Assembly (NCBI RefSeq): GCF_988242995.1 | Contig: NZ_OZ547043.1 | Length of the DNA: 64,000 nucleotides | Reading direction: 5' to 3' (one strand) | Shown: positions 17,897-29,537 of the stretch, piece after piece | How the letters are laid out: each line of letters begins with the position of its first letter | Numbering within the stretch: the stretch's first letter is position 1 | Position numbers and translations under genes: made by a program | Notes under the pieces: generated by a model | What the model was told of the DNA's origin: nothing | The model's input: the letters and a program-made list of their open reading frames with translations, nothing else | Databases searched by the model: none

Positions 17897-18946
17897 ATGA
17901 CGAATATCACCTTACAGAAACAACATCGTACACTGTGGCATTTTATTCCGGGGTTAGCCCTGAGTGCAGTTATCACCGGGGTCGCCCTGTGGGGTGGTTC
18001 CATTCCCGCGGTTGCGGGTGCCGGGTTTAGTGCCCTCACCCTCGCAATCTTGTTGGGGATGGTTTTAGGCAACACCATCTATCCGCACATCTGGAAAAGC
18101 TGTGACGGTGGTGTGCTGTTTGCCAAGCAATATTTATTACGTCTGGGTATCATTCTTTATGGCTTCCGTCTGACGTTCTCGCAAATTGCCGATGTCGGTA
18201 TCAGTGGGATCATCATTGACGTGTTGACGCTGTCCAGTACCTTCCTGCTGGCTTGCTTCCTGGGGCAGAAAGTGTTTGGTCTGGATAAGCACACCAGCTG
18301 GTTGATCGGTGCCGGTAGCAGTATTTGTGGTGCTGCCGCGGTACTGGCGACTGAGCCGGTAGTGAAAGCGGAAGCCAGTAAAGTAACCGTGGCTGTTGCA
18401 ACCGTTGTTATCTTCGGGACCGTCGCGATTTTCCTCTACCCGGCGATATATCCGCTGATGTCTCAATGGTTTAGTCCGGAAACTTTCGGTATCTACATTG
18501 GTTCTACTGTGCACGAAGTGGCGCAGGTGGTGGCGGCAGGTCATGCCATCAGCCCGGATGCGGAAAACGCAGCAGTTATTTCCAAAATGCTGCGCGTGAT
18601 GATGCTGGCTCCGTTCCTCATCCTGCTGGCGGCGCGTGTTAAACAGCTGTCTGGGGCGAACAGCGGCGAGAAAAGCAAAATCACTATTCCGTGGTTTGCC
18701 ATCTTGTTCATCGTAGTTGCCATCTTTAACTCGTTCCACCTGTTACCGCAGAGCGTGGTGAACATGCTGGTAACGCTGGATACCTTCCTGCTGGCAATGG
18801 CGATGGCGGCGCTGGGTCTGACCACTCACGTCAGCGCACTGAAAAAAGCCGGGGCGAAACCTCTGCTGATGGCACTGGTACTGTTTGCCTGGCTGATTGT
18901 TGGTGGTGGTGCGATTAACTATGTGATTCAAAGCGTCATCGCATAA
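17897..18946 (+). CDS. yeiH: UPF0324-family inner membrane protein
   Basis: 349-aa polytopic membrane ORF divergent from yeiE. Confidence 0.8.
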
Positions 18947-19019
18947 ACCACTACATCTTGCTCCTGTTAACCCGCTATCATTACCGTTTTCCTCCAGCGG
19001 GTTTAACAGGAGTCCTCGC

Positions 19020-19877
19020 ATGAAATACATTGGAGCGCACGTTAGTGCTGCTGGCGGTCTGGCAAATGCCGCAATTCGCGCCGCCGAAATCGACGCAACC
19101 GCGTTTGCCTTGTTCACCAAAAACCAACGTCAGTGGCGTGCCGCACCGCTCACGACGCAAACCATCGATGAATTCAAAGCCGCCTGTGAAAAATATCACT
19201 ACACATCGGCGCAAATTCTTCCCCACGACAGTTATCTGATTAACCTCGGACATCCGGTCGCTGAAGCTCTGGAAAAATCGCGCGATGCGTTTATAGATGA
19301 AATGCAGCGTTGCGAACAGCTGGGGCTTTCTTTGCTCAACTTCCACCCTGGCAGCCATCTGATGCAGATTTCAGAAGAGGATTGCCTTGCGCGTATTGCC
19401 GAATCCATCAACATTGCGCTGGATAAAACTCATGGTGTGACAGCGGTGATTGAAAACACCGCCGGTCAGGGCAGTAACTTAGGGTTTAAATTCGAACATC
19501 TCGCGGCGATTATCGACGGCGTTGAAGATAAATCCCGCGTCGGCGTCTGCATTGATACCTGCCATGCTTTCGCTGCCGGGTATGATTTGCGTACTCCAGC
19601 CGAATGCGAGAAAACGTTCGCTGATTTTGCCCGTATTGTTGGCTTTAAGTATCTGCGCGGGATGCACCTTAACGATGCGAAAAGCACCTTTGGCAGCCGC
19701 GTTGACCGCCATCATAGCCTTGGTGAAGGCAATATCGGTCATGATGCGTTCCGCTGGATCATGCAGGACGACCGTTTCGACGGCATTCCGCTGATCCTTG
19801 AAACCATCAACCCGGATATCTGGGCAGAAGAGATCGCCTGGCTGAAAGCGCAACAAACTGAAAAAGCGGTAGCCTGA
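19020..19877 (+). CDS. nfo: endonuclease IV (AP endonuclease)
   Basis: 285-aa ORF; recognised Nfo sequence ([13 protein letters not shown]…). Confidence 0.92.
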
Positions 19878-19879
19878 AG

Positions 19880-20968
19880 ATGAATAACCGGGAAAAGGAG
19901 ATCCTTGTAATTTTACGGCGTAACCCGCTGATTCAGCAGAACGAAATTGCGGATATGCTGCAAATCAGCCGTTCGCGTGTTGCGGCGCATATTATGGATT
20001 TAATGCGCAAAGGTCGGATTAAAGGCAAAGGTTACATTCTCACCGAGCAGGAATACTGCGTAGTGGTGGGGACAATCAATATGGATATTCGCGGGATGGC
20101 GGATATCCGTTACCCGCAAGCGGCTTCTCATCCCGGTACAATTCATTGCTCGGCAGGCGGCGTTGGACGCAATATCGCCCACAATCTGGCGCTGTTAGGC
20201 CGCGACGTCCATTTGCTTTCAGTGATTGGCGATGACTTTTATGGCGAAATGCTCCTGGAAGAAACGCGCCGCACCGGCGTGAATGTCTCCGGCTGCGTTC
20301 GTTTACATGGTCAAAGCACATCGACGTATCTGGCAATTGCCAATCGAGACGATCAAACCGTGCTGGCGATTAACGATACCCATCTGCTGGAACAGTTGAC
20401 ACCGCAACTACTGAACGGGTCGCGCGATTTACTTCGTCATGCGGGCGTGGTACTGGCTGATTGCAACCTGACAGCCGAGGCGCTGGAGTGGGTCTTTACC
20501 CTCGCTGATGAAATCCCGGTGTTTGTCGATACCGTTTCAGAATTCAAAGCGGGCAAAATCAAACACTGGCTGGCGCATATTCACACCCTGAAACCCACTT
20601 TACCGGAGCTGGAAATTTTATGGGGACAGGCGATCACCAGCGATGCTGACCGTAATGCCGCAGTGAATGCGTTGCATCAGCAAGGCGTTCAGCAACTGTT
20701 TGTTTATTTGCCCGATGAGTCAGTTTATTGCAGCGAAAAGGATGGAGAACAATTTTTGCTGACCGCACCAGCGCATACGACAGTAGACAGTTTTGGTGCT
20801 GACGATGGTTTTATGGCGGGTCTGGTATATAGCTTTCTGGAAGGAAACAATTTCCGTGACAGCGCCCGTTTTGCGATGGCCTGCGCGGCAATTTCACGCG
20901 CCAGCGGCAGCTTAAACAACCCTACCCTGTCTGCCGAAAACGCGCTTTCATTAGTGCCGATGGTGTAA
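19880..20968 (+). CDS. yeiI: sugar kinase with N-terminal HTH domain
   Basis: 362-aa ORF; PfkB/ribokinase-like motifs; paralogous to psuK. Confidence 0.8.
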   Translation: MNNREKEILVILRRNPLIQQNEIADMLQISRSRVAAHIMDLMRKGRIKGKGYILTEQEYCVVVGTINMDIRGMADIRYPQAASHPGTIHCSAGGVGRNIAHNLALLGRDVHLLSVIGDDFYGEMLLEETRRTGVNVSGCVRLHGQSTSTYLAIANRDDQTVLAINDTHLLEQLTPQLLNGSRDLLRHAGVVLADCNLTAEALEWVFTLADEIPVFVDTVSEFKAGKIKHWLAHIHTLKPTLPELEILWGQAITSDADRNAAVNALHQQGVQQLFVYLPDESVYCSEKDGEQFLLTAPAHTTVDSFGADDGFMAGLVYSFLEGNNFRDSARFAMACAAISRASGSLNNPTLSAENALSLVPMV

Positions 20969-21023
20969 CAATGTTGCCGGATTCGACGCTTGACCGCGTC
21001 TTATCCGGCTCATAACTCGCGCA

Positions 21024-22274
21024 CTACGCTAAGCCAATAAAAAATCCGGCAATGGTAGCGCTCATCAGGTTAGAAAGTGTCGCCGCTGCCAGCGCCCGTA
21101 AACCAAGCTGGGCGATTTCCGGTGCACGGTGTGGCGCAACCGCAGAAAACGCCCCCACCACCACCCCGATAGAACCAAAGTTAGCGAAACCGCACAACGC
21201 GAAAGAAATAATCGCCACGGTTTTAGCATCCAGAGTGCCAGCTGTTTGCAGATAAGGTGAGAAATTGAGGTAAGCGACAAATTCATTAATCGCCAGTTTC
21301 TGTCCAATCAAACTCCCGGCAAGATTCGCATCAGTCCAGTCAACACCCATTACCCACGCCAGTGGGGCCAGCAGGTAACCTAAAATGGACTCCAGCGAGG
21401 CATGTTCAAAACCAAACCAGCCGCCAACGCCGCCGATAATACCGTTAATTAACGCAATGATGGCGACAAATGCCATCACTACTGTCGCCACACCTGCGGC
21501 GATTTTCAGTCCGGTCATTGCCCCTGTAGCGGCGGCTTCAATAATGCTTTTTGGCGGTGTTTCGGTGAAAGAGAGGTTATTAAAGGAAACCTGCGAAGAT
21601 TCGGTAGCCGGGCTTAACAGGCGGGCAAACAAGATCCCGCCGGGGATCGCCATTAACGATGCCGCTAGCAGATATTCCACAGGCACGCCCAGTGCGGCGT
21701 AACCAATCATTGTCGAACCAGCAATCGAGGCCATGCCACTACAAATAGCCGTAAATAATTCATTGCGATTCAGACGATCGATAAAGGGTTTGACGATTGC
21801 CGGAATTTCGTTTTGCCCGAGGAAAATGGTAGTGACAGCGACGAATGACTCAATCTTGCTGATATTCAATGCTTTCTGGAATATACCGCCGAGAATGCGA
21901 ATTAAGATCCCCATCACACCGATGTAGTAGAGAATACTCACCAGTGCTGTAACGAAGATAATTGCCGGTAATACCCTGAAACCAAAGATAAATCCTGCGC
22001 CATCAAACAGCGTGTCCATTTTCGGCCCGACCAGCGAACCGAAGATAAATGCGCTACCCGCGTCGCTGTACGCCATCACTTTATGCACGCCAAAAGCGAC
22101 TTTTTCAGCGACCCAACGCCCTGGCGGTAACCAAAGCATAATGCCGCCAATCACGACCTGTAACACTAACCCCGCGCCAACGGTACGCAGGCTGATCTTC
22201 TTCTTGTTTACTGACAGCAAAAACGCAATTGCCAGCAATACCACCATTCCCAGAACACTTCTCATGACATCCAT
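21024..22274 (-). CDS. nupX: nucleoside permease (CNT family)
   Basis: 416-aa membrane ORF; close paralog of psuT at 24211..25461. Confidence 0.85.
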   Translation of the reverse strand: MDVMRSVLGMVVLLAIAFLLSVNKKKISLRTVGAGLVLQVVIGGIMLWLPPGRWVAEKVAFGVHKVMAYSDAGSAFIFGSLVGPKMDTLFDGAGFIFGFRVLPAIIFVTALVSILYYIGVMGILIRILGGIFQKALNISKIESFVAVTTIFLGQNEIPAIVKPFIDRLNRNELFTAICSGMASIAGSTMIGYAALGVPVEYLLAASLMAIPGGILFARLLSPATESSQVSFNNLSFTETPPKSIIEAAATGAMTGLKIAAGVATVVMAFVAIIALINGIIGGVGGWFGFEHASLESILGYLLAPLAWVMGVDWTDANLAGSLIGQKLAINEFVAYLNFSPYLQTAGTLDAKTVAIISFALCGFANFGSIGVVVGAFSAVAPHRAPEIAQLGLRALAAATLSNLMSATIAGFFIGLA

Positions 22275-22373
22275 AGTTATTATCTCTTCATGTCATTTTG
22301 GGCGACGGCTTTCTGCCCATCAGAAATAGCCGGGCCTGCATCTTGCGATACTGACCCGGCTTGTTATCAACAC

Positions 22374-23315
22374 TTAATGGGTTTTGATGTAGCCGCGCAC
22401 GCACTCTTCGACTAATCCCCAGAACCAGTCAGTATCAATAGTGATGCCGACTTTGGTATTGGCGGGCTTGCCAAGAACGCCCAGTTCGTCGCAGACCGTA
22501 CGCCCATAGCAAGGGCCGCTGTTGACGTCCACTTCGACGTACATATCCTGGGTTTTAATGCCATCAGGGTTGATCAGATAACCGATGCAGGTGGCGTCGT
22601 GCACCGGGCCGCCAGCCAGGCCATAGTTTTCGAACTGGGTTTTGAGAGTGAAGTTCATGATGTCGCTGAACAGCTCTCCGGCAGGGCCGCCTGCCCTTTC
22701 CATCCGAGCAATCACGTCCGGGGTGCAAACGGTCTGGTTGGTGAGATCGAGGCCCATCATCACCAACGGAACGCCGGAGGTGAACACCACGCGTGCGGCT
22801 TCCGGGTCAGCAAAGATGTTGAACTCGGCAGATGGGGTGAAGTTGCCAGTACCGTAAGCGCCGCCCATCAGCACAATTTCACGGATTTTCGGCAGGATCG
22901 CGGGTTGCATACGCATTGCCACCGCGATGTTTGAAAGTGGGCCAACCGGCACCAGAGTGATATCGCCATCGCTTGCCATCAGGGTATCAATGATGTATTT
23001 CACCGCATGGGTACTTTCTGCCTGGCGGGTCAGCGGCTCGAATACCGGGCCATCAAGTCCGGTTTCACCGTGAATATTATCGGCAACGATTTGTTGCCGC
23101 ATAATGGGCTGAGGCATCCCCGCATAAACCGGAACATTAATCTCCAGTTTCTGGCAAACATTCAGGCCATTAATTAATGTTTTATCAAGCGTCTGATTAC
23201 CCGCCACAATGGTGATGCCTAATAAATCAATCACCGGATGTTTCGCGGCCATCATTATGGCAATAGCATCATCATGACCCGGATCACAATCCAGAATAAT
23301 TTTTCTCTTTTCCAT
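22374..23315 (-). CDS. rihB: pyrimidine-specific ribonucleoside hydrolase
   Basis: 313-aa ORF with N-terminal DCDPGHDDA nucleoside-hydrolase motif. Confidence 0.9.
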
Positions 23316-23483
23316 TGTTTATTTCCTCTGTTTCCAGTTGCGTTATTTTTTCTACAGCAAAGAAAATTCGACCGGGCCGATGATTGAATCTTAACAACAG
23401 CGTAAGTATGCTAAATATGAGAAATCTCATAGCGGATAAACATCGTGAAAGAAATCCACAATAATGACCTTAAGCAGCAATTG

Positions 23484-24143
23484 ATGAGTGAATCTGCGTT
23501 TAAGGATTGCTTTTCAACGGATGTTTCAGCCGATACGCGGCTGTTTCATTTTTTAGCGCGTGACTACATTGTGCAGGAAGGGCAACAGCCGTCATGGCTG
23601 TTTTATCTGACGCGAGGCCGCGCCAGGCTTTACGCCACGCTTGCTAATGGTCGCGTGTCGCTGATCGATTTCTTTGCCGCCCCCTGTTTTATTGGTGAGA
23701 TTGAGTTAATCGATAAAGACCATGAACCGCGTGCGGTGCAGGCTATTGAAGAGTGTTGGTGCCTTGCGCTCCCTATGAAACATTACCGTCCGCTGTTATT
23801 AAACGACACACTATTTTTACGAAAACTCTGCGTTAGTTTAAGCCATAAAAATTATCGCAATATTGTTTCTTTAACTCAGAATCAATCATTTCCGTTAGTG
23901 AATCGCCTGGCAGCTTTTATATTACTCTCACAAGAAGGTGATCTTTATCACGAAAAACATACCCAGGCAGCAGAGTATTTAGGTGTTACTTATCGTCACT
24001 TGCTATATGTGATCGCTCAACTCATTCACGACGGTTTATTAATTAAAAGTAAGAAAGGGTATTTAATTAAAAACAGAAAGCAGTTGTCAGGACTGGCGCT
24101 GGAGATGGACCCGGAGAATAAATTCTCCGGGATGATGCAGTAA
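23484..24143 (+). CDS. yeiL: CRP/FNR-family transcriptional regulator
   Basis: 219-aa product from ATG at 23484 (the listed ORF extends 13 codons upstream); cNMP-binding-like domain plus C-terminal HTH. Confidence 0.8.
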
Positions 24144-24210
24144 AAAATAATCTGCAATAGCGCGATTGCCGGATGCAACGCTTAATAAGGCGTACATCCG
24201 GCAATGAAAC

Positions 24211-25461
24211 TCAAGCTAAACCAATAAAGAACCCGGCAATGGTCGCGCTCATCAGGTTGGAAAGCGTTGCTGCTGCCAGCGCCCGTAAACCAAGCTGGGC
24301 GATTTCCGGAGCACGTTTTGGCGAAATAGCCGAAAATGCCCCAACGACAACACCGATAGAACCAAAGTTAGCAAAACCACAAAGCGCAAAGGAGATAATC
24401 GCAATGGTTTTCACTTCCAGCGTGCCGCCCGTTTGCAGGTATGGGGAGAAACTCAGGTAAGCGACAAATTCGTTAATCGCCAGTTTCTGCCCAATCAGGC
24501 TACCCGCAAGGTTGGCATCACTCCAGTCCACACCCATGATCCACGCCAGCGGTGCCAGCACATAGCCAAAAATACTTTCCAGAGAGGCATTGGCGAAACC
24601 AAACCAGCCGCCAATTCCGCCGATAATGCCGTTGATCAGCGCAATAATTGCGACAAACGCCATTACCACCGTCGCTACACCAGCGGCGATTTTCAACCCG
24701 GTCATTGCCCCTGTAGCGGCGGCTTCAATAATGCTTTTTGGCGGCGTTTCGCTGAACGACAGATTTTCAAATGTGACCTGCGAAGGCTCGGTTGCCGGGC
24801 TAAGAATACGTGCAAACAAAATACCACCAGGGATCGCCATCAGCGATGCCGCTAACAGGTAGTCAATTGGTACGCCCATTCCGGCATAACCAATCATCAT
24901 CGAACCGGCAATGGACGCCATCCCGCTACAAATTGCCGTAAATAGCTCGTTGCGATTCATGCGATCGATAAACGGTTTTACGATCGCCGGGATCTCATTT
25001 TGCCCGAGGAAAATAGTGGTAACCGCAACAAAAGATTCGATTTTGCTGATGTTGAGGGCTTTCTGAAAAATACTGCCAAGAATGCGGATTAGCAGCCCCA
25101 TCACGCCAATGTAGTACAGCAGGCTGATGAGCGCAGTGACGAAGATAATCGCCGGGAGTACGCGAAAGGCGAAGATAAAGCCCGCGCCATCAAACAGGAC
25201 ATCCATTTTCGGCCCGACCAATGAACCAAAAATAAAGGCACTACCGGCATCACTGTAAGACATCACTTTATGAACGCCTAATGCCGCCTGCTCTACCGCC
25301 CATTTTCCTGGTGGAAAATAGAGCATGATGCCGCCAATGGCGATTTGTAGCAGCAGCGCGGCTCCAACCGTGCGCAAACTGATGCTCTTTTTATTCACTG
25401 ACAACAAAAATGCTATTGCCAGTAACACCACCATCCCCACAACACTTCTCATTATATCCAT
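24211..25461 (-). CDS. psuT: putative pseudouridine/nucleoside transporter (CNT family)
   Basis: 416-aa ORF; paralog of nupX; upstream of psuG-psuK. Confidence 0.85.
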   Translation of the reverse strand: MDIMRSVVGMVVLLAIAFLLSVNKKSISLRTVGAALLLQIAIGGIMLYFPPGKWAVEQAALGVHKVMSYSDAGSAFIFGSLVGPKMDVLFDGAGFIFAFRVLPAIIFVTALISLLYYIGVMGLLIRILGSIFQKALNISKIESFVAVTTIFLGQNEIPAIVKPFIDRMNRNELFTAICSGMASIAGSMMIGYAGMGVPIDYLLAASLMAIPGGILFARILSPATEPSQVTFENLSFSETPPKSIIEAAATGAMTGLKIAAGVATVVMAFVAIIALINGIIGGIGGWFGFANASLESIFGYVLAPLAWIMGVDWSDANLAGSLIGQKLAINEFVAYLSFSPYLQTGGTLEVKTIAIISFALCGFANFGSIGVVVGAFSAISPKRAPEIAQLGLRALAAATLSNLMSATIAGFFIGLA

Positions 25462-25554
25462 AATGATTTTCCCTTCATGCCAGTAAACCCGGCGTCAGCG
25501 CCAGGTTTTGGTATGTATGATCAGTACGGGCGACGGCTTTCTGCCCGTCAGAAA

Positions 25555-26493
25555 TTAACCCGCGAGACGCTGGTATTCTTTGGCAATTTCACTCGCCAGA
25601 ATGGCGTTGTTGAACACCAGTTGGATGTTGGATTTCAGGCTGTCACCGCCAGTCAGTTCAGCAACACGAGCCAGCAGGAACGGTGTGCTTTCTTTACCAA
25701 TAACGCCCTGCTCTTCGGCTTCTGCCACTGCCTGATCAATCGCAGCGTTAATGGTCTGTTCCGGCATCGCAAACTGTTCCGGGATCGGGTTCGCTACCAC
25801 GAGGCCACCGTTCAGCCCGCTTTGCCATTTCACCGCCATTGCACGGGCAATTTCGCTGGCGCTGTCGAGACGAATGCTGACGTCAAACGGGCTGGTGCGG
25901 CAGAAAAACGCAGGCAGCGCTTTGGTCTGATAGCCAATTAGTGGCACACCGAAGGTTTCTAAATATTCTGTTGTTAATCCTAAATCGAGAATAGATTTCG
26001 CCCCGGCACAAACAACGGTGACATTAGTATTTGCCAGTTCTTGCAAATCGGCAGAAATATCGAAGGTATGTTCCGCCCCGCGATGCACACCACCAATTCC
26101 CCCGGTGGCAAATACTTTAATTCCGGCAAGCGCCGCAATAATCATCGTTGAAGCCACAGTGGTTGCGCCATTTTTTCCGGCGGCAACAACAAAAGGTAAA
26201 TCGCGACGACTAACTTTGGTCACGTTATGCCCTTCGCGACCCAGTAATTCAATTTCTTCTTTGCTTAAACCCACTTTCATCACGCCGCCAATAATGGCGA
26301 TAGTGGCAGGTACAGCGCCCTGTTTACGAATAGTTTCTTCAACTTCAATTGCGGTCTGGGCATTTTGTGGGAACGGCATCCCGTGAGAAATAATGGTCGA
26401 TTCCAGCGCCACAACCGGTTTTTTGTTTTTTAAAGCGTCCTGCACTTCCGGGGAAATTTGTAATAATTCAGGGGAAATTTTTAATTCAGACAT
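25555..26493 (-). CDS. psuG: pseudouridine-5'-phosphate glycosidase
   Basis: 312-aa ORF; recognised PsuG sequence; overlaps psuK stop. Confidence 0.9.
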   Translation of the reverse strand: MSELKISPELLQISPEVQDALKNKKPVVALESTIISHGMPFPQNAQTAIEVEETIRKQGAVPATIAIIGGVMKVGLSKEEIELLGREGHNVTKVSRRDLPFVVAAGKNGATTVASTMIIAALAGIKVFATGGIGGVHRGAEHTFDISADLQELANTNVTVVCAGAKSILDLGLTTEYLETFGVPLIGYQTKALPAFFCRTSPFDVSIRLDSASEIARAMAVKWQSGLNGGLVVANPIPEQFAMPEQTINAAIDQAVAEAEEQGVIGKESTPFLLARVAELTGGDSLKSNIQLVFNNAILASEIAKEYQRLAG

Positions 26494-27422
26494 TCTGCGT
26501 TCTCCACTAACGATATAACGTTGGCAATCGATAAATCGGGGTTATTGGTGTATTCACAGGAGAGCGCCATTGACGAACATCCCTGTGCGAAACGAACAGA
26601 TTCGGCAAACGGCATTCCGTCTACCCAACACGAAGCAAGTCCCGCCATCATGGCATCGCCCGCTCCGGTAACATTAATGACATTGGTTTTGATCGGCGCA
26701 GACCAACCATTTTCACCGCTGATATCACTGTAATAAACGCCGTCGCCGCCCATGCTCAATACCAGTCGGTTCAGGCCATGTTGATGGAACCAGGCAGCAA
26801 CTATTGCCACATCTTCACGCCCTGACAAAGCAATCCCACTCAGGGTTTCCGCTTCAAGGCGGTTTGGCTTCAGGGTGTGGATCTGATTTAGACGGTCGCG
26901 CACTTTGACACATTTCCATGCCGAAACCGGATCGACAAATACGGGTACGTTGGCGGCATTATCCAGAATCCATGCCAGTGCCTCTTCACTGATATTACAG
27001 TCCGCGACAATGACCTTTGCCCTCTGAATAAATTCACAGTGCTGTGCGAGATATTCAGCTGTAATAGCGTTGCTAATATTCATGTCATTTATAGCAACCA
27101 GCATTTCACCGGTATTATCGAGTAATGATAAATAGCTCGACGTATTTTCTCCCGGCACAATCAGGCATTTATCGACATAAACGCCAGATTGATTGGTTTG
27201 CGTTAGCAGCGATTGACCATAAAAATCACTGCCTACTGCGCTCAGTAGCCAGGCTTTGTTACCCAGCAACGCCAGGTTTTGTGCAATATTTCGCCCGACT
27301 CCACCAGGCGTAAATTTTATTTTACCTGGATTTGAATCCGCATAATTTAATGATTCATGTGAATATCCGGCGATATCAATATTCGCCGAACCTATAATTA
27401 CGACATAATCCTTTTCGCGCAT
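26481..27422 (-). CDS. psuK: pseudouridine kinase (PfkB family)
   Basis: 313-aa ORF; ribokinase-like GAGD motif. Confidence 0.88.
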   Translation of the reverse strand: MREKDYVVIIGSANIDIAGYSHESLNYADSNPGKIKFTPGGVGRNIAQNLALLGNKAWLLSAVGSDFYGQSLLTQTNQSGVYVDKCLIVPGENTSSYLSLLDNTGEMLVAINDMNISNAITAEYLAQHCEFIQRAKVIVADCNISEEALAWILDNAANVPVFVDPVSAWKCVKVRDRLNQIHTLKPNRLEAETLSGIALSGREDVAIVAAWFHQHGLNRLVLSMGGDGVYYSDISGENGWSAPIKTNVINVTGAGDAMMAGLASCWVDGMPFAESVRFAQGCSSMALSCEYTNNPDLSIANVISLVENAECLN

Positions 27423-27845
27423 AGCACGTCCTCTGGTAAAAAATTACCAACCCTGTCAATCCACAAGAATATAGATACTGCAAAGACGGTTTAAACATGT
27501 GTTCATATTTAAACATGTGCTCATAGTATGCATGTTTTACGTAAAGTAAATTACCGCCAGAGAGGCAAAATGGGCAGATTTGAGCAGGCTCACAAAACGC
27601 GATTAAATGCCTGAATTATAAAAACGGGGAATTTGTGACGGGATGCACAGAACAGGAACAATAAAAAAGGGCAGAAATTAATCTGCCCTTGAGGAAATAA
27701 CCTTAGTGTTTGATGAAGGTTTCAGGTTTCTACTAAAAGATAAAACCATTTAAATTCATAAAATTACATTCACAAACCGGTCATTCTCTTTGCGCGCATC
27801 AAATGTTACAGGGCAGGAAATTTCTGCCCTGTAACACACCTTTTA

Positions 27846-29537
27846 TTACGCTGCTTTCGCTACTGCGTCCACTTCCGGACGTTTCAGGAAGGCATAGGCC
27901 AGACCCGCCACCAGCGTACCGGCAATAATGGCTACCAGGTAACCCAGTACCGGCGTAATAGCGCCAGGGATCAGCAGAACAAACAGACCACCGTGCGGTG
28001 CCATCAGTTTCGCACCAATCGCCATTGAGATTGCGCCAGTCAGCGCCCCACCCACGATACAGCACGGCAGCACACGCATCGGATCACGAGCAGCAAACGG
28101 AATTGCACCTTCCGAAATGAAGCACAGTCCCAATACCAGAGCGGCTTTGCCACCTTCCTGCTGCGCTTTGTCGAATTTGCGACGCGCCACCATTGTTGCC
28201 AGGCCCATTGCCAGCGGTGGCACCATACCTGCCGCCATAATCGCCGCCATCGGGCCATAGGTTTGAGTACTCAGCAGACCCACACCGAATGCGTACGCTG
28301 CTTTGTTTACCGGACCGCCCATGTCAGTACACATCATGCCACCGAGGATCGCCCCCAGCAGAACCGCATTCGCAGTCCCCATGGTCTGCAGCCAGTGAGT
28401 CAACCCTTCGAGAATGCCAGCAACCGGTTTACCGATCAGGTAGATCATCGCCAGACCGACCACCAGACTGGAAATTAGCGGAATGATCAGAATCGGTTTC
28501 AGCGCCTCCATACTCTGTGGCAGTTTCAATTGCGTACTGATTAACTTCGCAATGTAACCAGCCAGGAAGCCCGCAATAATACCGCCAATGAAGCCAGAAC
28601 CAGTGCTGACCGCCAGCATACCGCCAATCAGACCCGGCGTGAGACCCGGACGATCGGCAATGGAGAAGGCAATATAACCTGCCAGTACCGGCACCATCAG
28701 CGCAAAGGCTGAACCACCACCAATCTGCATCAGCGCCGCTGCCAACGTACCCGGCTCTTTAAACGCTTCGATACCAAAAGCAAAAGAAAGCGCGATACAC
28801 AGACCACCTGCAACGACCATCGGCAGCATGTAAGAGACGCCCGTCAGCAAGTGACGATAAGCGCCTGCACTCTCTTTCTTACCTTCAGTGGTCGCCGTTT
28901 GAGCTTTGCCCGCCGGTTCATACGGCGTTGCTTCAGCAACCGCTTTATCCAGTTCCTGCGCGGTTTTCTTCAGCGCCAGACCGGTAGAGGTGCGATACAT
29001 CGGTTTACCAGCAAATTTCGCCAGATCCACTTCAATATCTGCCGCCACAATCACCAGATCCGCTGCGGCTACTTCTTCAGGGGTGATTGCATTACCCGCG
29101 CCAACCGAACCACGGGTTTCAACTTTCACCCACCAGCCACGTTTTTTCGCTTCGGTTTCAATGGCTTCAGCCGCCATAAAGGTGTGTGCTACGCCAGTCG
29201 GGCAAGCAGTCACCGCAACTACGCGTTTCGGACCGCTGGCGGCAACCGGTGCTGTCGCAGCGACCGGCGCAGTGTAAGGTTTTGCATGGCCTTTGGCTTC
29301 ACTCAGGAACAGCTCAGGGTGCGCAACTGCCCGGGAAATATCGCCCAGCCAAACATTTTTACCGTTCAGCGCGCTGTCGTTCGGGATGGAATCACCGAGA
29401 ACAATCGCCATTTCAGCGTCGTTCGGATTGTCGATGATTTCCAGTTTTGCTTTTCGCGCCGCCGCGCCCAGCAGGGTCTTCGCCATATAGGCGCGTGCCT
29501 GACCGAGATTAGCGTCAATAATCAGCAGCGTTTTCAT
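27846..29537 (-). CDS. fruA: PTS fructose-specific EIIB'BC component
   Basis: 563-aa ORF; recognised FruA sequence. Confidence 0.92.
   Translation of the reverse strand: MKTLLIIDANLGQARAYMAKTLLGAAARKAKLEIIDNPNDAEMAIVLGDSIPNDSALNGKNVWLGDISRAVAHPELFLSEAKGHAKPYTAPVAATAPVAASGPKRVVAVTACPTGVAHTFMAAEAIETEAKKRGWWVKVETRGSVGAGNAITPEEVAAADLVIVAADIEVDLAKFAGKPMYRTSTGLALKKTAQELDKAVAEATPYEPAGKAQTATTEGKKESAGAYRHLLTGVSYMLPMVVAGGLCIALSFAFGIEAFKEPGTLAAALMQIGGGSAFALMVPVLAGYIAFSIADRPGLTPGLIGGMLAVSTGSGFIGGIIAGFLAGYIAKLISTQLKLPQSMEALKPILIIPLISSLVVGLAMIYLIGKPVAGILEGLTHWLQTMGTANAVLLGAILGGMMCTDMGGPVNKAAYAFGVGLLSTQTYGPMAAIMAAGMVPPLAMGLATMVARRKFDKAQQEGGKAALVLGLCFISEGAIPFAARDPMRVLPCCIVGGALTGAISMAIGAKLMAPHGGLFVLLIPGAITPVLGYLVAIIAGTLVAGLAYAFLKRPEVDAVAKAA

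Follow-up and report, generated by a model that had tools for sequence, protein, structure and literature searches.

Paralogous genes in bacteria can evolve in concert through gene conversion, as tufA and tufB do in Salmonella. Repeat-associated gene conversion is also described for M. tuberculosis (PMC12046097). For RecA/RecBC, the minimal efficient processing segment (MEPS) is 23-27 bp, and divergence and distance each lower recombination efficiency (PMC12074656). E. coli K-12 is also known to delete sequence between short direct repeats without RecA (PMC5426353). Here, we analyze a direct repeat formed by two CNT-family transporter genes, nupX and psuT, which flank rihB and yeiL in a 64,000-nt stretch of contig NZ_OZ547043.1 (RefSeq assembly GCF_988242995.1); we refer to this whole stretch as the window. 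Homology-guided, in-register exchange between the two copies occurs in nature, giving conversion patches and deletions of one repeat unit. We consider it highly probable that nupX and psuT constitute an imperfect, homeologous direct repeat whose rare in-register exchanges yield one or the other of these products.

A diverged direct repeat of two transporter genes

The two repeat copies, the genes between them, and the genes that flank them in the window are as follows.

19880..20968, plus strand: yeiI, helix-turn-helix plus PfkB kinase; left flank, which adjoins the chimeric gene after deletion.
21024..22274, minus strand: nupX (yeiJ), left repeat copy, a 416-aa CNT-family nucleoside transporter (open reading frame, Pfam CNT domains, annotated nupX at the same position).
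22374..23315, minus strand: rihB, encoding a pyrimidine nucleoside hydrolase, directly upstream of nupX and codirectional with it (Pfam IU_nuc_hydro, E = 7e-98; absent from deletion loci L004 to L008).
23445..24143, plus strand: yeiL, CRP/FNR-type regulator (Pfam cNMP_binding and HTH_Crp_2; absent from L004 to L008).
24211..25461, minus strand: psuT (yeiM), right repeat copy, a 416-aa CNT-family transporter, last in psuK-psuG-psuT (open reading frame, Pfam, annotated psuT in homologous loci).
25555..26493, minus strand: psuG, pseudouridine-5'-phosphate glycosidase; right flank, kept upstream of the chimeric gene.

The original prediction, made from the window's sequence, described a pair of 416-aa CNT-family transporters in the same orientation, about 2 kb apart and flanking rihB-yeiL. 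Open reading frames, Pfam matches, and alignment all agree with it, and both genes are on the minus strand. The copies align ungapped and in register over 1,251 nt, with a start-to-start spacing of 3,187 bp and 1,936 bp between them. The extensive identity claimed for the pair holds for this ungapped alignment and for the proteins (88.5% identical), but nucleotide identity in the window pairwise alignment is 999/1,251, or 79.9%, just below the 80% under which the same prediction had taken identity to be too low to support recombination. Yet the best 50-nt windows of the alignment reach 92%, exact tracts run to 47 bp, and natural recombinants exist. Identity at codon positions 1, 2, and 3 is 89%, 95%, and 55%. 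Beyond either end of the coding sequences, similarity is at background level (16 to 50%), with the exception of a 27-nt leader element.

Synonymous divergence (dS) between nupX and psuT is 1.17 and nonsynonymous divergence (dN) is 0.074. As dN/dS is 0.06, both genes are under purifying selection; they are an old paralog pair of which both copies have been retained. Synonymous divergence is uneven along the gene, at about 1.9 to 2.0 in codons 1 to 208 and about 0.8 in codons 209 to 416.

The window gene order, nfo-yeiI-nupX-rihB-yeiL-psuT-psuG-psuK-fruA, is that of RefSeq-annotated K-12 (synteny with DH1). The window genes are orthologs of K-12 nupX and psuT, with the same position and orientation and 95.1% and 95.7% nucleotide identity, and the window nupX is 95 to 99% identical to RefSeq-annotated nupX at matching loci. 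The locus feature is, as had been stated, already known, the gene pair being present likewise in K-12.

Deletions of one repeat unit leave a chimeric gene

The pair had been proposed to be a substrate for homologous recombination that could delete or amplify rihB-yeiL, with a survey of population genomes as the check. We ran this survey on 5,426 complete E. coli genomes with a synthetic version of the predicted deletion product (yeiI 3' end, nupX, and the 3' part of psuG; 2,961 nt), designed so that normal genomes cover less than 80% of it in one place. Full-length, single-piece matches were found in five of the genomes (SY019, CFSAN004176, 11PC, EH10-18-47, and E203449), a frequency of about 0.1% of complete genomes. 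All five lack rihB and yeiL, and their annotation at this point reads yeiI, one intact 1,251-nt CNT gene, psuG, and psuK. The loss is exactly the predicted in-register loss of 3,187 bp, one repeat unit. Searching again with the deletion loci themselves (three queries) returned the same five genomes and no others, and the five loci are at most 97.8% identical to one another.

Painting at paralog-fixed sites reveals that the single gene in each deletion genome has a nupX-type 3' part and a psuT-type 5' part with one clean switch between them, an arrangement whose order is predicted by in-register exchange. The switch position differs in each of the five. The chimeric gene is an intact 416-aa open reading frame in every case and keeps both the psuT 5' end and its place behind psuK-psuG; the 11PC chimeric protein is identical to K-12 PsuT.

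We also queried a much larger collection of assemblies for exact matches to the chimeric proteins. The deleted context, fruA-psuK-psuG-chimera-yeiI-nfo-yeiH, recurs there in isolates and metagenomes, with 9 other contigs carrying the same chimera and deleted context for the L007 type, 14 for the L008 type, 15 for the L004 type, and at least 24 for the L005 type. A sixth deletion allele (L051, identical to L053) was found among these further contigs. Chimeras on other genetic backgrounds switch in the same regions, 304-327 and 459-541 (junction offsets are counted from the 3' end of the gene throughout). Some deletion alleles are carried by lineages. Ordinary allelic recombination can carry a deletion allele from one strain to another, so we counted events by distinct junctions only, which gives at least five independent deletion events. 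With the exact deletion and its chimera in five complete genomes and many further assemblies, the proposal that the pair is a recombination substrate for loss of rihB-yeiL is borne out. Literature searches aimed at these genes returned no report of a deletion polymorphism at nupX, psuT, rihB, or yeiL, nor of conversion products.

Conversion patches in both directions

We compared the two genes in a panel made up of the window and a further 15 intact strains. Within a strain, nupX and psuT are 78.2 to 79.9% identical and their longest exact tract is 20 to 47 bp; the final 105 nt of the gene contain no site at which the paralogs show a fixed difference. Pairwise diversity is 6.2% for psuT and 3.8% for nupX. 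Perfect tracts of MEPS length are present, at 47 and 38 bp in the window and 98 bp in GCA_029471425.1. The tracts of interest in the window are listed below.

nupX 21511..21557 = psuT 24698..24744: 47-bp exact tract, the longest in the window; the nupX side is the donor tract of the conversion patch.
psuT 24698..24744, minimum extent 24706-24732: conversion patch of nupX haplotype, identical to nupX 21511-21557.
nupX 21085..21122 = psuT 24272..24309: 38-bp exact tract, second longest, nearly invariant among strains.
nupX 21166..21185 = psuT 24353..24372: 20-bp exact tract; junction interval of deletion allele L051/L053 and right edge of the conversion patch in GCA_029471425.1 (L052).
21328..21350 = psuT 24515..24537: equivalent of the 23-bp L007 junction tract, exact in K-12-type alleles and not in the window.
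21496..21518 = psuT 24683..24705: equivalent of the 23-bp L004 junction tract.

The closest psuT allele to that of the window in any complete genome is 99.0% identical (NY1601). The two differ at 13 positions. Nine of these are packed into 27 nt (offsets 495-521, window 24706-24732), and at each of the nine the window's psuT has the base of its own nupX. The 47-bp tract of the window is therefore a conversion patch in which psuT was copied from nupX. Strain NDM_11.16372 (L014) carries the reciprocal event over the same stretch, with nupX copied from psuT, and K-12 nupX has psuT-type sequence in its last ~55 nt. In the intact locus of GCA_029471425.1, a nupX-type patch in psuT makes a 98-bp perfect tract at offsets 64-161. 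The longest case is a 3.8-kb metagenome scaffold (L062) on which yeiL is broken but the locus is otherwise intact; its psuT carries nupX-type sequence over offsets 36-471 (~470 nt) and differs from deletion chimera L004 by 1 nt; this type of long conversion has no counterpart in the 5,426 complete genomes.

Polymorphic sites that include the base of the paralog (44 shared polymorphisms in the panel) were considered as evidence of conversion and dropped, since new mutations at paralog-identical sites mimic the pattern. Conversion was called from clustered patches only.

Junctions and parental alleles

Parents of the chimeras were sought among the alleles of intact strains, and adding closer relatives to the first panel resolved L004 and L005. 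The deletion alleles were reconstructed as follows.

L004 chimera: parents strain 118UI nupX and psuT, 0 mismatches; junction tract of 23 bp, offsets 472-495.
L007 chimera: parents K-12-type alleles, 0 mismatches; junction tract of 23 bp, offsets 304-327.
L005 chimera: parents 2013C-4974 alleles, 1 mismatch; junction tract of 13 bp, offsets 274-287.
L006 chimera: parents ambiguous; junction at offsets below 54.
L008 chimera: no parent found (16 mismatches); apparent junction of 5 bp, offsets 163-168.
L051 = L053, the sixth deletion allele: parents K-12-type alleles, 0 mismatches; junction tract of 20 bp, offsets 142-162.

The three parent-matched junction tracts of L004, L007, and L005 rank 3rd, 2nd, and 9th among about 260 identity tracts (product of chance probabilities, 5e-4). 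No junction falls outside the 40% of the gene nearest its 3' end (P about 0.01 for uniform placement), and the region that bears them is the part of the gene with lower synonymous divergence.

Mechanism of exchange

nupX and psuT would each end a nucleoside-catabolism unit of their own, rihB-nupX and psuK-psuG-psuT, and with the same orientation and a spacing of 3,187 bp, the copies act as an imperfect direct repeat. Exchanges would start or resolve in brief stretches where the copies match perfectly, for the most part in the 3' half, which is better conserved. One outcome would be non-crossover conversion in either direction, leaving a patch of tens to about 100 bp. The other would be a crossover or template switch that removes one repeat unit, consisting of the 5' part of nupX, rihB, yeiL, and the 3' part of psuT; such a deletion would leave a chimera of psuT 5' and nupX 3' sequence still attached to psuK-psuG. 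Deletions are rare, at the frequency given above, because 20% divergence keeps the rate low. Enzymatically, the exchange is probably homologous recombination, and we favor RecA-mediated homeologous exchange because conversion patches with recipient sequence to either side suggest heteroduplex intermediates.

Several points weigh against this reading. The parents of L006 and L008 were not found among the intact-strain alleles compared. Junction tracts are 13 to 23 bp long (5 bp in two parentless cases), at or below the RecBCD MEPS (PMC12074656), so that classical RecA recombination at the junction itself is not an obvious fit. Varied genetic backgrounds alone are no proof of independent deletion events, as allelic recombination can move alleles, and the sole very long conversion tract comes from L062, a low-quality scaffold that may be a chimeric assembly. 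Finally, the reciprocal duplication product, with its yeiL-hybrid-rihB junction, was not seen. Two synthetic queries (yeiL 3' end, psuT, and rihB 3' end, and the same with a psuT/nupX hybrid) detected no tandem-duplication junction in the 5,426 genomes, their best coverage of 88 to 89% being the level of a normal genome, although assemblies cannot display transient duplications and this null is absence of evidence only. The predicted amplification of rihB-yeiL therefore found no counterpart among these genomes.

The short junction tracts also bear on the possibility that the exchange is RecA independent, proceeding by replication slippage, by sister-strand template switching, or by single-strand annealing at microhomology, without strand invasion. 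We regard this as a possible, if rather unlikely, route. Tracts at or below the MEPS (PMC12074656) are in its favor, as is the closeness of the repeats (3.2 kb), and such deletion is known in E. coli K-12 (PMC5426353). The bias of junctions to the longest tracts, however, is predicted by both mechanisms, and patches with recipient sequence on both sides arise more easily from heteroduplex or strand-invasion intermediates.

In a two-step version of events, which we find doubtful, conversion primes deletion: nupX would be copied into the 3' part of psuT, creating a perfect repeat of ~100 to 500 bp, and efficient RecA recombination would then follow inside it. It is equally doubtful that the visible junction is, as this version has it, the fossil boundary of a conversion and not the crossover point, even though this would account for junctions below the MEPS. 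The right edge of the 98-bp tract of GCA_029471425.1 falls in the same 142-162 interval as the L051/L053 junction, and L051 can be rebuilt from the GCA_029471425.1 alleles with 0 mismatches; however, if conversion and deletion both favor the few longest tracts, edges should coincide fairly often. L062 would be just such an intermediate, with its intact locus, a psuT that is nupX-type over offsets 36-471, and 1 nt separating it from L004, but it is the same poor metagenome scaffold, possibly a chimeric assembly, with no equivalent among the 5,426 complete genomes. Moreover, unconverted K-12-type and 118UI-type alleles explain L007, L051, and L004 equally well, and an intact-locus counterpart of the L005 or L007 chimeras was not seen. 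If conversion does prime deletion, strains with converted alleles (47 bp in the window, 98 bp in GCA_029471425.1) should be measurably more prone to rihB-yeiL loss, and deletion would restore the single-transporter arrangement of Klebsiella and E. albertii.

Collapse of the paralogs during assembly is a very improbable source of the single-transporter genomes. Three of the five records are chromosome-level whole-genome shotgun assemblies (CM accessions), but repeats that differ by 20% do not collapse, every chimera is an intact open reading frame with one clean switch, and the same chimeras and context have been assembled independently in dozens of isolates and metagenomes, on which ground we reject the artifact. 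Any rihB-yeiL sequence is found in only 5,418 of the 5,426 genomes, which is consistent with loss, the eight non-matching genomes not being individually identified.

We likewise reject, as scarcely credible, the idea that the single-transporter state of these strains is ancestral and that nupX-rihB-yeiL was never acquired: a single-CNT arrangement, nfo-yeiI-CNT-psuG-psuK-fruA, does occur in Klebsiella grimontii and Enterobacteriaceae UBA3516 (L041 and L036) and in the E. albertii type strain (L027), and the CNT gene adjoins yeiI in three further Klebsiella species in shorter loci that do not reach psuG, but the single gene of the E. coli deletion strains is chimeric, with both parts matching alleles that circulate in intact E. 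coli (0 to 1 mismatches), a pattern that requires recent exchange.

Distribution in relatives

To survey relatives, we scanned representative genomes with one degenerate pattern and then ran tblastn. Two copies arranged in this way occur in E. coli, Escherichia sp. E1V33, and Citrobacter amalonaticus. The motif matched twice in each of E. whittamii and Escherichia sp. MOD1-EC7003; the E. whittamii locus is split and rihB-yeiL was not captured, and that of MOD1-EC7003 is without most of psuT and all of psuK. The two C. amalonaticus copies (L032) share 92% identity in the 3' half but match either E. coli copy at only 77 to 82%, which points to concerted evolution or an independent origin of this pair. 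From offset 105 on, the E. albertii CNT gene has the psuT base at every fixed site, and its single copy may be ancestral or the result of a terminal deletion. Izhakiella (L040) has a rihB-CNT pair.

As an origin of the pair, we considered Campbell-type integration of a rihB-CNT-yeiL circle and rejected it, since the 3' half of nupX is not closer to the Klebsiella copy (77.5 to 78.7%, versus 78 to 81% for psuT).

Related sequences also occur on plasmid records. Record p98228-contig_1 (L043, NZ_CP173464.1 46925-51235), a 64.9-kb plasmid-labeled record, carries a diverged module (71 to 81% nucleotide identity) of sugar kinase, CNT, psuG, and psuK genes that adjoins AlpA and inovirus-Gp2-type genes. 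Given this setting, the single-transporter module can also be mobile. Searches spanning psuT-psuG matched 6 to 7 places on plasmid records. The rihB-yeiL interval occurs at most twice per genome, with six matches on plasmid records.

Function of the two transporters

Nucleos_tra2_N, Gate, and Nucleos_tra2_C match full-length in NupX and PsuT at 81 to 82, 56, and 241 bits (E-values 1e-15 to 1e-72; Pfam gathering cut-offs 27, 29.6, and 32.3 bits). The E. coli CNT members are NupX, PsuT, and NupC, with NupX and PsuT forming one clade apart from NupC; NupX transports uridine and cytidine with low efficiency, and no transport of uridine, cytidine, or xanthosine was detected for PsuT, which was named a pseudouridine transporter from its operon context (PMC11241209). 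Strain engineering treats PsuT as an importer of pseudouridine, and in production strains psuT has been deleted to stop its re-uptake (PMC13090712). From operon membership only, we infer pseudouridine to be the PsuT substrate. In K-12, rihB has been reported as physiologically silent (PMC2898832).

Other variation at the locus

Other changes at the locus remove parts of the same unit. An internal 1,135-bp deletion of nupX (window equivalent 21073-22207) is found in B2 strains, including Nissle 1917 (L001 3590-3856), CFT073, ATCC 25922, LF82, and others, in roughly 800 to 1,000 of the 5,426 genomes. What remains of the gene is 49 nt at the 3' end and 67 nt at the 5' end; the junction has ~3 nt of microhomology, and the deletion is unrelated to paralog exchange. 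A 476-bp 5' deletion of nupX (window equivalent 21788-22263) occurs in A25 and 2022H047. IS1 replaces the 5' part of nupX and rihB in TOK-001, and the 5' part of nupX, rihB, and yeiL in ET734; in RM9975, nupX contains an internal stop and yeiI is frameshifted. These repeated, unrelated losses suggest that the nupX-rihB-yeiL unit may be dispensable in many lineages. Taking the paralog deletions together with the B2 and IS1 deletions, nupX-rihB-yeiL has been lost repeatedly while psuKGT has been kept, which fits the reports of rihB silence in K-12. The psu side also decays: psuG is annotated as frameshifted in Nissle 1917 (L001 7037-7977) and is truncated in MOD1-EC7003 (L037).

yeiI and psuK (26481-27422) each fall into two deeply diverged E. 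coli allele classes, with the window/K-12 class and the B2 class differing by ~19% at the nucleotide level. Between the same classes, psuG is 11% and psuT 10% apart, and the yeiH, nfo, and fruA flanks are 97 to 99% identical. The B2 class is 91.5 to 92% identical to E. albertii, and the window/K-12 class is the outlier, which suggests either an old introgression or a polymorphism older than the species split. The best match to the window locus 19880-26493 in complete RefSeq E. coli is 98.6% (NY1601, chicken feces), most genomes being at 88 to 97%; this divergence appears high relative to the flanking genes (97 to 99% in three comparison strains). YeiI (19880-20968, plus strand) and PsuK (26481-27422, minus strand) are PfkB paralogs with ~40% amino acid identity, inverted at the ends of the locus, and the region reads as two side-by-side nucleoside modules of kinase/transporter/glycosidase type.

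The 27-nt element that breaks the background outside the coding sequences lies in the leader of both genes.

22300..22326, minus strand: 27-nt leader element TTTCTGATGGGCAGAAAGCCGTCGCCC, nupX 5' leader.
25528..25554, minus strand: second copy of the 27-nt leader element, psuT 5' leader, directly after the psuG stop codon.

Across the two leaders it reads TTTCTGAYGGGCAGAAAGCCGTCGCCC; the single C/T difference between the copies keeps a possible G-C/G-U pair, and a small hairpin fold is predicted in either leader. nupX and psuT also resemble each other over the 18 nt that precede the ATG, and the psuT leader is 41 nt longer. An Rfam search of 18500-28500 gave no family for the leader element and sub-threshold matches only, including naRNA4 on a repetitive extragenic palindrome (REP)-like sequence. 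REP-like palindromes lie downstream of both genes, at 20969-21023 and 24144-24210, and the weak sub-threshold naRNA4 match is at 20962-21010. The yeiI-nupX spacer measures 55 nt in the window and 106 nt in K-12-type strains.

Significance

Annotation and pangenome tools should expect an occasional E. coli with a single nupX/psuT chimera and no rihB-yeiL, and psuT or nupX alleles with patches of the other gene inflate apparent diversity. Read mis-mapping between the copies, which had also been raised, proves to be a minor concern: reads of 100 nt carry at least 9 mismatches to the paralog and reads of 150 nt at least 17, and only 25 of 1,221 31-mers are common to nupX and psuT. The problem is small and confined to very short reads or to k-mers in the two long tracts.

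The locus is a clean natural case in which repeats of 80% identity have exchanged sequence at junctions that could be mapped, and a possible chromosomal test bed for homeologous recombination and for the proposal that conversion primes deletion. Its practical value is limited. The gene pair is already known, it behaves as recombination biology predicts, and the existing view of how such repeats behave is unchanged.

Comparison with known systems

NupX and PsuT share the three-domain Nucleos_tra2_N/Gate/Nucleos_tra2_C architecture of the CNT family (NupC, vcCNT, and CNTnw). NupC belongs to a different branch, whereas NupX and PsuT sit on the vcCNT-related one (PMC11241209). The closest described locus is that of K-12 nupX (yeiJ) and psuT (yeiM), which resembles the window in its genes, their order and orientation, and the 416-aa length of both transporters. 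It differs from the window allele in sequence, with 95 to 97% identity across nupX-psuG, and the 47-bp conversion patch is private to the window.

As in E. coli direct-repeat deletion systems, the repeats are in direct orientation, one unit is lost in register, and junctions fall in the longest identity tracts. In contrast to those systems, the repeats here are functional genes with 20% divergence, and the evidence consists of natural population variants, not a genetic assay. Concerted evolution of bacterial paralogs likewise leaves short patches of the other copy's haplotype in both directions, and at this locus synonymous divergence is lower where the patches occur. Compared with concerted-evolution systems, however, homogenization of E. 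coli nupX and psuT is weak and local, and the copies stay ~20% diverged and functionally distinct (PMC11241209).

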